A DNA stretch of 64,000 nucleotides, taken from a virus. The stretch is from IMG/VR virus record IMGVR_UViG_3300037467_001950; one strand, written 5' to 3'. Shown one piece after another: positions 58,883 to 61,174 of the stretch. The notes beneath the pieces were generated by a model, which saw nothing but the letters and a program-made list of their open reading frames with translations, made no database searches and was not told the origin of the DNA. Made by a program: the position numbers and the translations under genes. Within the stretch, counting starts at the first letter, position 1. Every line of letters starts with the position of its first letter.

Positions 58883-59038
58883 CCCTGTGGGCGGGCCTTT
58901 TTCGGCCGGTTATCCATGAGGAGGACGAGGTTGCGGGGTTCAAGTCCCCGTCACCGCTCAGCGGCCCTGGCGGTGTAGCTCAACGGCAGAGCGCGTAAAC
59001 CCGGTCGGATCTCCATGTCCGTCCACCACCCCCACAGA
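58883..59038 (+). ncRNA. Y RNA-like 1 (YrlA-type, permuted tRNA-like module)
   Basis: The closing stem pairs CCTGTGGG with CCCACAG. The GGGCC..CGGCCGGTTATC box (58893-58914) pairs with AACCCGGTCGG (58998-59008). Internally there is a T-arm CGGGG-TTCAAGT-CCCCG, an acceptor-like hairpin CACCGC...GCGGTG and a D-arm GCTC-AACGGCA-GAGC. Confidence 0.7.
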
Positions 59039-59042
59039 TTTG

Positions 59043-59194
59043 CTCGACACGAGGATGGGCCTCGTCCGGCCGGTTATCTATTGGATATACAGGTTCGAAT
59101 CCTGTCGGCGGGGCCCGCAACCCCCCGCTGGCGGTGCCGCGACTTCGGCAGCGGCACATCCGGTCAGCACCACACGTCCCATCCTCCCGTCGAG
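59043..59194 (+). ncRNA. Y RNA-like 2 (T-arm present, D-arm replaced by another hairpin)
   Basis: The closing stem pairs CTCGAC-AC-GAGGATGGG with CCCATCCTC-CC-GTCGAG. The box GGGCC..CCGGCCGGTTATC (59057-59078) pairs with ATCCGGTCAG (59158-59167). T-arm ACAGG-TTCGAAT-CCTGT. Additional hairpins CGGCGGGG..CCCCGCTG and GTGCCGC..GCGGCAC. Confidence 0.65.
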
Positions 59195-59196
59195 AA

Positions 59197-59273
59197 GTGG
59201 TAGCGGGCCTTGCCTGCCGGTTATCGGCTGACACTCCACTCAACCCGGTAGGCGCCCCACGCCCGCTACCCAC
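59197..59273 (+). ncRNA. Y RNA-like 3 (short, no tRNA-like module)
   Basis: The closing stem pairs GTGGTAGCGGG with CCCGCTACCCAC (one bulged C). The box GGGCC..CTGCCGGTTATC (59205-59225) pairs with AACCCGGTAGG (59242-59252). Confidence 0.6.
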
Positions 59274-59280
59274 CACAATT

Positions 59281-59447
59281 GCAGATCGAGACGGGCCTCA
59301 GCCGGGCGGTTATCTTTTAATCCGCTGGTCGCAGGTTCGATTCCTGCCTCGTGCCCCCCGTAACAGCGCTACGGGGGCGCGTGTAGCTCAGATGGCAGAG
59401 CATCGGCAAATAACCCGGTCGGCGCCCACACGCCCGTCTCGCCCTGC
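59281..59447 (+). ncRNA. Y RNA-like 4 (YrlA-type, permuted tRNA-like module)
   Basis: The closing stem pairs CGAGACGGG with CCCGTCTCG. The box GGGCC..GCCGGGCGGTTATC (59293-59314) pairs with ATAACCCGGTCGG (59410-59422). T-arm GCAGG-TTCGATT-CCTGC, hairpin GCCCCCCGTA..TACGGGGGC, D-arm GCTC-AGATGGCA-GAGC. Confidence 0.7.
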
Positions 59448-59466
59448 ACACCACCACGCCCCGCCC

Positions 59467-59503
59467 GGTCGCGCCAACGACCCCGGGGCCTACGAGAAGG
59501 AAG
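59467..59503 (+). promoter_or_regulatory. conserved early 5'-UTR box, copy C
   Basis: GGTCGCGCCAACGACCCCGGGGCCTACGAGAAGGAAG, then ATG 59513. The similarity to copy B extends about 30 nt further upstream. Confidence 0.5.
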
Positions 59504-59512
59504 AACCACCCG

Positions 59513-61174
59513 ATGAGCGATGTGCTGTCCTCGATCAACCTGCGCACCACGCCGCAGTCCGAGGCCGCCGACCCCCGCCAGGTGCCCAACAACGCTGGCG
59601 GATTCACCTTCGAAGTCACCCCCGAATCCCGGCTGCGCCGGTTCCTGATCCTGGGCGTGGAAGGCGGCACCTACTACGTCGGCGCCAAGGACCTGGCCAA
59701 GGAGAACGCGGCCGTGGTGATGGACTTCGCCCGCACCCGCACCGAATACCTGGTCAACGAGATCGTGGAAATCTCCGTGGCCGGGCGCGCCCCCAAGCAG
59801 AACCCGGCCCTGTTCGCGTTGGCCGCCGCCGCCTCGTTGAGCGAAGACGAGTACGGGCGGCGCACCGCGCTGGAAGCGCTACCGCTGGTCGCGCGCACCG
59901 GCACCCACCTGTTCCAGTTCATCGACTACCTCGAACAGTTCCGCGGCTGGGGTCGCGCCGTGCGCCGCGCGGTCGCCGGCTGGTATGCGAACAAGCCGAT
60001 CGACGACCTCGCCTACCAGGTGCTCAAGTACCGACACCGCGGGCGCCGCTCGCACCGCCAGCTGCTGATGCTGTCCCACGACGCCGGCTACACCGCCAGC
60101 GACGAGCACCGCCGCCTCTACGACTGGATCGCCATCGAGGCCGAGGGCCGCAACCCGCGCTCCCCGCGCTTCGGGCAGACCGCCGACCTGACAGGGCTCA
60201 CGCTGGTCGAGGGGTACCAGCGTGCGCGCACCGCCAAGGTCGCCGACCTGCCGAACCTGATCAGCCAGTACCGGCTCACCTGGGAGATGCTGCCCGAAGA
60301 GTCGCTGGCCACCCCTGCAGTGTGGGAGGCGTTGCTCGATGCGGGGATGGGTCAGACGGCGCTGGTGCGTCAGCTGCCGCGCCTGACCTCCCTCGGGCTG
60401 CTGTCGCCGCTGTCGGACCGCACCGCCACCGTCGCCGCCCAGCTCAGCGACGCCGACCGGCTGCGCAAGGGCCGCGTGCACCCGTTTTGGCTGCTGCTGG
60501 CCCAGCGGTCCTATGAACTCGGCCGCAACCGCAACCTCACCTGGAACCCGACCGCTACGATCGTCGACGCCCTGGGTGATGCGTTCTACCGCGCCTACCC
60601 GGCGGTCGAGCCGACCGGCAAGCGGTGGCTGCTGGGCCTCGACGTCTCCGGGTCGATGGGGAGTGCGAACTGCGCGGGCCTCAACATCACAGCCCGTGAG
60701 GCGGCGGCGGCGCTCGCGTTGGTCATCGCCAACACCGAGCCCCGCCACCAGATCGTCGGGTTCACCGCCGGCTCGCCGAGCCAGCGCGGCGGCTGGACCG
60801 GGTACGGCACCGCGCTGCGCGAGCTGGCCATCTCTCCGCGCCAGCGACTCTCCGACGCGGTGCGGGTGGTGTCGGGGTTGCCGTTCGGCAACACCGACTG
60901 CGCGCTGCCCATGCAGTACGCCCTCGCCCAGGGCCTCGAAATCGACACGTTCGTGGTCATCACCGACAACGAAACTTGGTACGGCACCGAACATCCACAC
61001 CAGGCGATGGTGAAGTACCGGGGGCGGGTCAACCCGAACGCGAAGCTCATCGTGTTGGCCATGACCGCCACGAACTTCACCATCGCCGACCCGGCCGACG
61101 CCGGGATGCTCGACATCGCGGGCCTCGACGCCGCGGTGCCGACGCTGGTTTCCGACTTCGCCCGCGGACTGTAG
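59513..61174 (+). CDS. rsr: Ro60 ortholog (TROVE domain plus vWA domain)
   Basis: N-terminal [36 protein letters not shown] is the TROVE signature. The C-terminal MIDAS motif [11 protein letters not shown] and ...TDNETW mark a vWA fold. 553 aa. Confidence 0.88.

Follow-up and report, generated by a model that had tools for sequence, protein, structure and literature searches.

Complexes of Ro60 with Y RNAs are conserved from bacteria to humans, and Ro60 is a major autoantigen in lupus and Sjogren syndrome. The window examined here, a stretch of 64,000 nucleotides from the viral record IMGVR_UViG_3300037467_001950 (IMG/VR), carries a gene for a Ro60 (Rsr) orthologue directly preceded by four tandem structured elements, which raises two questions: whether these elements are Y RNAs, and what a phage might do with such a set. 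That the locus is a phage Ro60 ribonucleoprotein (RNP) module is well supported, as is the presence in it of four Y RNAs, including two of the YrlA type. What is new, judging from the aligned sequences, is that the Ro-contact motif is absent from all four RNAs and that the Ro60 protein carries matching changes.

Four structured elements directly upstream of Ro60

The Ro60 protein of the window aligned end to end with frog Ro60 (PDB 1yvp, 2.5e-93) and with Deinococcus Rsr (2nvo, 7.6e-93). TROVE ring and vWA domain are full length, and the translation contains the metal ion-dependent adhesion site (MIDAS) motif (DVSGSM, TDC and TDNET). Among roughly 8000 Ro60 homologues, its nearest relatives are Nocardia proteins, at about 64% identity.

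The elements lie 72 to 626 nt upstream of the Ro60 start, all on the + strand (Table 1). Their 5' box, GGGCC-N(4-12)-CGGTTATC, occurred exactly four times in the 64 kb (at 58893, 59057, 59205 and 59293, each on the + strand), against an expectation of 0 from 100 dinucleotide shuffles. All four share one core: a 10-bp terminal stem (stem A) ending in GGGC/GCCC, an asymmetric internal loop, a 9-bp helix (helix B) and then UUAUC. The internal loop has 3-4 nt on its 5' side and 6-8 nt on its 3' side, the latter CAC-rich in elements 2-4. Stem A and helix B were fully paired in elements 1 and 3 (10/10 and 9/9 each) and nearly so in element 4 (10/10 and 8/9); element 2 reached approximately 9.5 and 7.5 pairs with single bulges (about 17/19). 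When a 3' partner was sought for each box, at least 18 of 19 pairs were found in 1% of trials with shuffled downstream sequence versus 57% of real boxes, and elements 1, 3 and 4 attained this level; the search cut-off of 16/19 was lenient, being passed by 36% of shuffles. Folding energy z-scores were -3.9, -4.5 and -3.7 for elements 2, 3 and 4.

Outside the core, the fold showed outer stems around element 2 (CUCGAC/GUCGAG, 59043-59194) and element 4 (UGCAG/CUGCA, 59280-59448), and a possible outer extension of element 1 was read from the sequence (CUGUGGG/CCCACAG, 58885-59036). The preliminary description of this locus had proposed four stem-closed elements directly upstream of a TROVE and vWA Ro60, a T-arm, closed acceptor-like hairpin and D-arm in permuted order in elements 1 and 4, and a minimal Y RNA as element 3. 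This layout was borne out: four boxes with their pairing were present, models from other genomes matched these four sites, the arms lay where they had been placed, and element 3 was matched by the model of minimal elements and has no tRNA-like part. Element 2 had been described as keeping only the T-arm. The T-arm is there, and an acceptor-like hairpin is kept as well; a GC hairpin with a UUCG loop (59134-59157) occupies the place of the D-arm.

Covariance models and covariation in related loci

Matches to Rfam were only sub-threshold, and we therefore built our own covariance models from Ro60 loci. We gathered 161 such loci (81 on viral contigs and 80 in species genomes, mostly Actinobacteria) and made two models solely from the elements of other loci, with the window sequences excluded: R1 from six minimal elements, and R2 from 29 YrlA-type elements trimmed to their stem ends and aligned by MAFFT. 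With filters off, R1 failed to extend over elements 1 and 4, which are long, and gave many weak hairpin matches, and R2 was used in its place. R1 and R2 together matched only the four element sites in the window; after the elements, the next best R2 match scored 17.7 bits, at the tRNA-Met gene. R2 gave no match in 727 kb of unrelated viral DNA. In the Ro60 loci (1.15 Mb) it matched 395 times, and for 383 of these matches the site was just upstream of Ro60 and shared its strand.

Among the 29 YrlA-type relatives, 33 consensus pairs were paired in 96.4% of cases versus 75.8% in shuffled sequences, a level that 0 of 500 shuffles reached, and pairing fell to 38-51% when partners were slid by 1-3 columns. 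Compensatory changes, by which the preliminary description had proposed to judge its helices, were found in 22 of the 33 pairs. The T stem was 100% paired with three of five pairs covarying, and the acceptor hairpin 95.9% paired with six of six covarying; neither had been used for selection.

With Rfam at its gathering threshold nothing was found in the element interval. Under permissive settings the YrlA family (RF02553) matched element 4 over its full length (38.3 bits, E 1e-6) and element 1 at 25 bits, so that a search of the interval, which had also been proposed, gave sub-threshold matches from Rfam and all four elements from R1 and R2. ARAGORN and the Rfam tRNA model returned no canonical tRNA there. 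Two marks of YrlA RNAs are a site no more than 4 kb away from a Ro60 orthologue and on its strand, which all four elements occupy, and the succession of T-arm, closed acceptor-like stem and D-arm, which elements 1 and 4 possess; element 2 has a T-arm and a hairpin and element 3 none of these parts.

Two other viral contigs carry the same array. In L164, from another sample, Ro60 is 99% identical to that of the window and the upstream array is virtually identical over 731 nt aligned. In L162, a sister phage with a 68% identical Ro60, the same four elements follow in the same order behind syntenic small genes. A metagenome scan found no relative of the window Ro60 above 54% identity, and therefore no intermediates between the window and L162. 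The window and L162 were compared element by element; a column-wise MAFFT version over-counted lost pairs at indels. The element 1 orthologue aligned base for base, and that of element 2 scored 56.4 bits with R2. A compensatory A-U to G-C change was seen in stem A of element 3, and element 2 (stem A) and element 4 (helix B) also showed stem-preserving changes. The element 1 orthologue of L162 (3357-3512) has an insertion of 13 nt in the D-loop, folded into a small GGCC/GGCC hairpin; this Y RNA therefore tolerates a larger D-arm. A coding function of the interval was rejected, as indels between the window and L162 measure 1, 2, 5, 6 and 13 nt.

A variant loop motif and a matching change in Ro60

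The 5' strand of related elements reads GGGCC-G(G/A)A-G...CGGUUAUC; in the window, GGGCC is followed by U. The loops after GGGCC were UUU, UCG, UUG and UCA in elements 1 to 4. A box was recognisable in 298 unique related elements, and 292 of these had G at this place (GGA in 189, GAA in 45), and the few non-G exceptions were mostly regular-expression artefacts of a CAGGA variant. All four loops of L162 were canonical (GGA, GGA, GAA and GGA). Aligned in this way, the window loops appear as four parallel G-to-U transversions in one lineage, with stems, GGGCC and UUAUC retained. The motif GNCGAAN0-1G, which takes the form GNCG(G/A)A in these loci and which every YrlA is said to carry close to its 5' end (PMC4201824), is missing from the window elements: GNC is retained and the purines are replaced by U-led loops. 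A motif of this type is the presumed contact with Ro60, and in Deinococcus radiodurans Yrn1 Rsr protects the G and A of the motif (PMC4201824). In the RNAs of Thermus phage phiLo, changing each CGAA base singly to U caused a 3- to 4-fold loss of affinity (PMC12135203). The preliminary description had seen in the box helix the kind of helix that Ro proteins bind; the shared box helix stands, and the purines that Ro would contact are gone from all four elements.

Changes were also found in the protein. The helix consensus KYRQREGW(S/T)HRDLLRL(A/S)H (frog residues 170-187) was present in nearly all of the 120 closest homologues. The corresponding helix of the window Ro60 (residues 172-189) carries W179R, D183Q and R186M, substitutions unique among these homologues: W179, D183 and R186 were conserved in 119, 120 and 120 of them, including the L162 protein, whose helix reads KYRRRHDWSHHDVLRVSH and keeps W, D and R. 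Across 160 loci the three substitutions were rare or absent. The window protein departs at three positions from the conserved Ro60 helix KYxQRxGW(S/T)HRDLLRLxH, and it retains K172, R176, H181, R182 and H189, the last being the equivalent of H187. Of 201 columns conserved at 95% or more, the window deviated at 18, including 8 at which the sister keeps the consensus; three of these 8 cluster within 8 residues, on the RNA-binding helix.

The helix ends in the histidine equivalent to H187, and the H187S mutant of vertebrate Ro60 lacks Y RNA binding (review, PMC11277228). By profile alignment (E 9e-8), R186 corresponds to phiLo R173 and neighbouring residues to R163 and R169. These three arginines lie in the basic patch beside the CGAA bulge in the cryo-electron microscopy complex, and their mutation lowers affinity (PMC12135203). 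Residues 179, 183 and 186 are on the helix next to this motif and may touch the loop bases of the Y RNA.

Across all loci, the Ro60 type at positions 183 and 186 followed the loop type. Canonical D/R proteins were accompanied by 365 elements, of which 308 had G-purine-A, 55 G-N-N and 2 a non-G loop. With D/A (L044-46) five elements retained the first G and were relaxed at the other positions; with R/Q (L069) there was one R2 match, and three boxes read by eye all had CCA; with Q/M, in the window, all four elements had U. Changes of W179 alone (to M, C or Y) occurred together with canonical loops, and D183 and R186 are therefore indicated rather than W179. The L069 case, in which helix B pairing is less clean, is suggestive. 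When the viral contigs were scanned for GGGCCT-N(6-9)-CGGTTATC, only single chance matches were obtained, none of them with an R2 match. The change in both partners suggests a co-evolved switch of recognition; decay of the interaction appears less likely, since stems and open reading frame (ORF) are intact and the new loops share their first base.

L069 (IMGVR_UViG_2791355197_000001) has its Ro60 locus within a cluster of at least 11 tRNA genes, with three Y elements bearing GAGC-CCCA loops and a Ro60 helix in which the three positions substituted in the window are changed too (to Y, R and Q). Prophages of the M. abscessus type (L014, L017-L030, L034, L035, L047 and L058) have 4-5 elements with a GAGCAGGAC box rather than GGGCCGGAG, and their Ro60 has G in place of the H187-equivalent histidine (…LRLSGP); this is possibly another co-variation of RNA and protein.

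Comparison with known Ro60-Y RNA systems

Most of what is known of how Ro60 recognises the Y RNA loop comes from two complexes, one from frog and one, at low resolution, from a phage. The closest described arrangement is that of M. smegmatis, where YrlA and YrlB, both encoded upstream of rsr, derive from a common precursor and are co-precipitated with Rsr (Chen et al. 2014, RNA 20:1715, PMC4201824). As in the window, Ro60 is directly preceded, on its own strand, by the Y RNAs, one with T-arm, acceptor hairpin and D-arm in that order and a second with a T-arm only. The 7-bp acceptor-like stem of M. smegmatis YrlA makes it a substrate of both RNase P and the enzyme that adds CCA, and the corresponding stem of element 1 is also 7 bp long (PMC4201824). 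Two elements are described in M. smegmatis, compared with four in the window, and the window Ro60 differs by three substitutions in an otherwise near-invariant helix. Ro60 with YrlA-like RNAs is also said to have been noted in mycobacteriophages by Pedulla in 2003; these resemble the Ro60 and RNAs of the window phage, whose DNA is unrelated and whose recognition motif is a variant one.

Ro60 of phiLo binds two upstream Y-like RNAs (Yrl1 and Yrl2) and the host exoribonuclease PNPase (NAR 2025, PMC12135203; PDB 9KOP, 9L5Y). Like the window it has the Y-like RNAs upstream, built on a stem-bulge-stem module, and the phiLo RNA lies against the helix that aligns with residues 172-189 of the window protein; RNAs and protein both engage host PNPase. 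The phiLo system differs in having two RNAs, each located via CGAA, a motif that the window RNAs lack, and the two proteins are distantly related. The D. radiodurans Rsr-Yrn1-PNPase complex (RYPER) and the Salmonella Rsr-YrlA-PNPase complex supply a working model in which an exoribonuclease is held to the Ro60 ring by the Y RNA, which also gates the cavity. The orientation of the module in Yrn1 differs from that in the window.

Metazoan Y RNAs and nematode stem-bulge RNAs share the layout of lower stem, internal loop, upper helix and UUAUC. Element 4 (59287-59440) gave a weak full-length match to the nematode stem-bulge family ceN72-3/ceN74-2 in Rfam (21 bits, E 0.14). The canonical actinobacterial spacing, GGGCCG(G/A)AG-N8-UUAUC, equals that of the nematode ceN72-3 consensus GGUCCGGAG-N8-UUAUC, and human Y1, GGUCCGAAG-N8-UUAUC, has the same spacing as the actinobacterial 5' strand. 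This suggests that the UUAUC element is shared from bacteria to animals. Metazoan Y RNAs differ in having no tRNA-like domain and in being transcribed individually by RNA polymerase III, and the window elements in lacking the CGA/GGA purines.

The window and L162 form a matched natural pair, with the same array and gene order and with changed versus canonical loop and helix. Such a pair could show which bases are read by which Ro60 residues, and whether the RNPs that phages build are orthogonal to host RNPs.

Arrays of Y RNAs are common in Ro60 loci

The preliminary description had rested the interest of the locus on the rarity of a four-member array, bacterial rsr loci being thought to carry usually one or two Y RNAs. 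We counted R2 matches (E <=1e-3, within 1.3 kb upstream of Ro60) in 149 loci of Actinobacteria and their phages. Among 72 viral loci, some of them on near-duplicate contigs, 11, 7, 17, 14, 12, 9 and 2 had zero to six elements, respectively; among 77 genomic loci the numbers were 2, 13, 30, 21, 11, 0 and 0. Loci with four or more elements thus numbered 23 among the viral and 11 among the genomic ones. With arrays of 3-6 common, rarity is no ground for interest, and the oddity of the locus lies in its loop motif and Ro60 helix.

A contig of the Nocardia sp. CC227C genome (L087) has YrlA-type, T-only, minimal and T-containing elements upstream of Ro60, nearly the order of the window. The M. abscessus prophage prophiGD43A-5 (L285, MW584167.1) gave four strong matches (44-94 bits) and one weak match (19.8 bits). 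Ro60 homologues were found in 353 deposited phage genomes, including those of large lytic cluster C-type mycobacteriophages. YrlA-like RNAs were already known from 22 bacteriophages (PMC4201824), and the two Ro60-bound Y-like RNAs of phiLo were shown biochemically in 2025 (PMC12135203). Neither phage carriage of Ro60 with Y RNAs, described since 2014, nor a four-member array is unusual. In Ro60 loci of Actinobacteria and their phages, multi-copy arrays are the rule, with as many as six Y RNAs in one locus, and current annotation overlooks them: the Rfam threshold is unreached, and one element in GenBank is labelled tRNA-Thr.

That label, 'tRNA-Thr (tgt)' at 784-862 of prophiGD43A-5 and also called by ARAGORN, overlaps the first Y-RNA-like element of the prophage (789-922, R2 93.8 bits). 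It is probably a mis-annotated YrlA-type RNA, the Y RNAs being unannotated in the record. In Promicromonospora-type loci, pairs of strong matches were seen on the minus strand (L120 1293-1556, L136 292-557, L142 32-299 and L150 213-489), 1.5-3 kb upstream of Ro60 and on the strand opposite to it; they may represent a second, divergently oriented array.

A proposed mechanism and its alternatives

We consider it likely that the locus is a phage-borne Ro60 RNP module in which four co-transcribed Y RNAs and Ro60 redirect host RNA decay and in which RNA-protein recognition has co-evolved. One transcript would run from the leader (~58803-58884) to the hairpin at 61296-61331, with the four tandem Y RNAs first and Ro60 after them. 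By analogy with M. smegmatis, Salmonella, D. radiodurans and phiLo, the precursor would be cut into four RNAs of approximately 70-165 nt. Each would bind Ro60 through the shared module of terminal stem, asymmetric internal loop, 9-bp helix and UUAUC, and the distal parts (two tRNA-like domains, a T-arm with two hairpins, and a plain loop) may recruit different partners or gate the Ro60 cavity. Enzymes that recognise tRNA and 3'-5' exoribonucleases of the host, PNPase for example, would be the likeliest partners, through which the phage may redirect or dampen host RNA decay and quality control. The replacement of G(G/A)A by U-led, pyrimidine-rich loops, together with the three helix replacements, would reflect recognition that co-evolved to a new specificity rather than decay.

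Several results weigh against this mechanism. Element 1 alone folded no better than shuffled sequence (z -1.3). The sequences behind the covariation result had been preselected by script for stem A and helix B pairing, at a lenient cut-off. With the Ro-contact purines absent from all four RNAs, binding by Ro60 is not to be assumed. The co-variation of loop and protein consists of one clean lineage (the window and L164 versus L162), the less clean L069 and the partial L044-46. A simple scan upstream of element 1 found no sigma-70 consensus promoter. Elements 1 and 4 remained below the RF02553 gathering score of 69 bits, and elements 2 and 3 gave no match to that family. The same score was reached by 0 of 19 related actinobacterial and actinophage Ro60 loci (L162, L081, L083, L087 and L154 among them); the missed score reflects the reach of the RF02553 model rather than this locus, and routine annotation therefore misses this clade of Y RNAs.

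A more specific form of the co-evolved module is tentative: R179, Q183 and M186 may read a GGGCC-U-pyrimidine loop rather than GGNCC-G-purine-A, the RNP being insulated from host Rsr and host Y RNAs. In that case host Rsr would not take the phage RNAs, host Y RNAs would not titrate the phage Ro60, and D183 and R186 would belong to the recognition code for the Y RNA loop. That insulation from the host Rsr system was the purpose of the switch is speculation.

It is unlikely, and would be compatible with the RNP module rather than exclusive of it, that the locus is a host-derived passenger: a captured Nocardia-type rsr locus, expressed from the prophage, that aids survival of the lysogen under ultraviolet, oxidative or starvation stress, as Rsr does in bacteria, instead of serving RNA manipulation in lytic growth. 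The nearest Ro60 proteins do come from Nocardia genome records, at about 64% identity, the CC227C array has nearly the same element order, and ParA/ParB with a weak integrase match would fit a temperate lifestyle; bacterial Rsr and Y RNAs are stress-induced (PMC12135203). However, the 353 deposited actinophage genomes with Ro60 include lytic ones, the small phage genes around the locus show synteny with two other phage contigs, and the altered recognition motif favours a specialised phage copy over simple carriage.

The loss of the G(G/A)A purines from four of four elements and the replacement of W179, D183 and R186 might also mean that the Ro-Y interaction is decaying, so that the RNAs no longer bind Ro60 or act alone, for example as tRNA mimics; that each CGAA base counts for affinity in phiLo (PMC12135203) points the same way. 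We regard this as improbable, given that the stems are intact (19, 17, 19 and 18 of 19 pairs), that the full-length ORF preserves both the MIDAS motif and H189, and that GGGCC, helix B and UUAUC are strictly retained. The same first base, reached by transversion in all four loops, is unexpected from drift, and L164 preserves a 99% identical Ro60 with the same array in another sample.

Even less probable is that Ro60 just stabilises RNAs whose tRNA-like modules are decoys, or else substrates, of host factors that target tRNA (for instance anticodon nucleases, tRNA-modifying enzymes, RNase P or the CCA-adding enzyme). Elements 1 and 4 mimic the T, acceptor and D parts completely, and element 1 has the 7-bp acceptor-like stem that makes M. 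smegmatis YrlA a substrate of the last two (PMC4201824). There is no anticodon arm, its place being taken by the Y stem, and hence no target for an anticodon nuclease; element 3, without a tRNA-like part, and element 2, with a partial one, are nevertheless both conserved in L162. We rejected, and give almost no credence to, the idea that the elements are degraded canonical tRNA genes lying beside Ro60 by chance: the T- and D-arm sequences are tRNA-like and an equivalent element is annotated tRNA-Thr in a deposited prophage, but ARAGORN and the Rfam tRNA model were blank here, the permuted arm order covaries in 29 relatives, and nearly all R2 matches (383/395) sit just upstream of Ro60 on its strand.

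Flanking signals and phage context

The features of the locus and its surroundings are collected in Table 1. The leader of about 80 nt was nearly identical in L162, more conserved than the Y RNAs or Ro60, and may therefore hold the promoter of the Y RNA-Ro60 unit or form its 5' leader. It contains the hexamers TTGCTA (58805-58810) and TATGGT (58832-58837), separated by a 21-nt spacer. It may be a phage-specific promoter or a further RNA element. The hairpin between element 4 and Ro60 is preserved in L162 with a C-G to U-G change and might act as a processing site or attenuator. The hairpin downstream of Ro60 probably ends the transcription unit, as read from its sequence; a simple terminator scan did not call it, because its U-tract is imperfect.

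Table 1. Positions of the Y RNA elements, the Ro60 gene, flanking signals and other features in the window.
Feature	Position	Strand	Details
Leader, conserved	58803-58884	+	follows the stop codon (58800-58802) of the preceding ORF and runs up to element 1
Y RNA element 1, YrlA-type	58887-59026	+	R2 78.8 bits, E 7e-15; Rfam YrlA partial, 25 bits
Element 1, core	stem A 58887-58896/59017-59026; helix B 58901-58909/59001-59009		5' loop CUUU; UUAUC
Element 1, arms	T-arm 58934-58950; acceptor-like hairpin 58952-58975; D-arm 58978-58992		acceptor-like hairpin closed, 7 bp
Y RNA element 2, YrlB-like	59051-59186	+	R2 43.3 bits, E 3e-7; R1 20.2 bits
Element 2, core	helix B 59065-59073/59160-59168		stem A with one bulged U; 5' loop CUCG; helix B 7/9
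Element 2, arms	T-arm 59089-59105; acceptor-like hairpin 59106-59130		
Y RNA element 3, minimal	59199-59270	+	R1 48.5 bits, E 3e-7 over the whole window
Element 3, parts	helix B 59212-59220/59245-59253		stem A; 5' loop CUU; 24-nt loop starting UUAUC
Y RNA element 4, YrlA-type	59287-59441	+	R2 92 bits, E 1e-17
Element 4, core	helix B 59301-59309/59415-59423		stem A; 5' loop CUCA; helix B 8/9
Element 4, arms	T-arm 59331-59347; acceptor-like hairpin 59348-59383; D-arm 59386-59401		acceptor-like hairpin long
GC hairpin and ribosome-binding site	hairpin 59458-59489; ribosome-binding site 59494-59503	+	ribosome-binding site GAGAAGGAAG; read from sequence
Ro60 (Rsr) orthologue	59513-61174	+	553 amino acids; Pfam vWA_Ro60 3.6e-56, TROVE 4.5e-39
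Terminator-like hairpin	61296-61331	+	15-bp, GC-rich, then GUUCGUUUC; U-rich tail; read from sequence
tRNA-Met	11182-11255	+	only tRNA in the window (ARAGORN, Rfam RF00005); between terminase and portal genes
ParA-like ATPase	50475-51224	+	
ParB-like protein	51224-52366	+	
DUF932 protein	54473-55615		

The window is phage DNA: it encodes a large terminase (6838-8121), a portal protein (13920-15629), a head morphogenesis protein and a tape measure protein of 1844 amino acids (23599-29133). The phage is siphovirus-like, with a contig of ~98 kb, and deposited phages showed almost no nucleotide similarity to the window, with short matches only. A tyrosine-integrase match at 1677-2870 (+) was weak, at 24.8 bits under the Pfam cut-off of 27.1. 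It is plausible that the phage is temperate, possibly a plasmid-like prophage, with which the ParA/ParB pair and the sub-threshold integrase match are compatible.

Downstream of Ro60, a gene of the inositol-monophosphatase family (61372-62172, +; Pfam Inositol_P 7.9e-45), with a likely GTG start at 61372, begins 40 nt past the terminator-like hairpin. The Inositol_P family includes the pAp phosphatase CysQ and SuhB, both connected with RNA metabolism, and a functional tie between this gene and the Ro60 module is possible.

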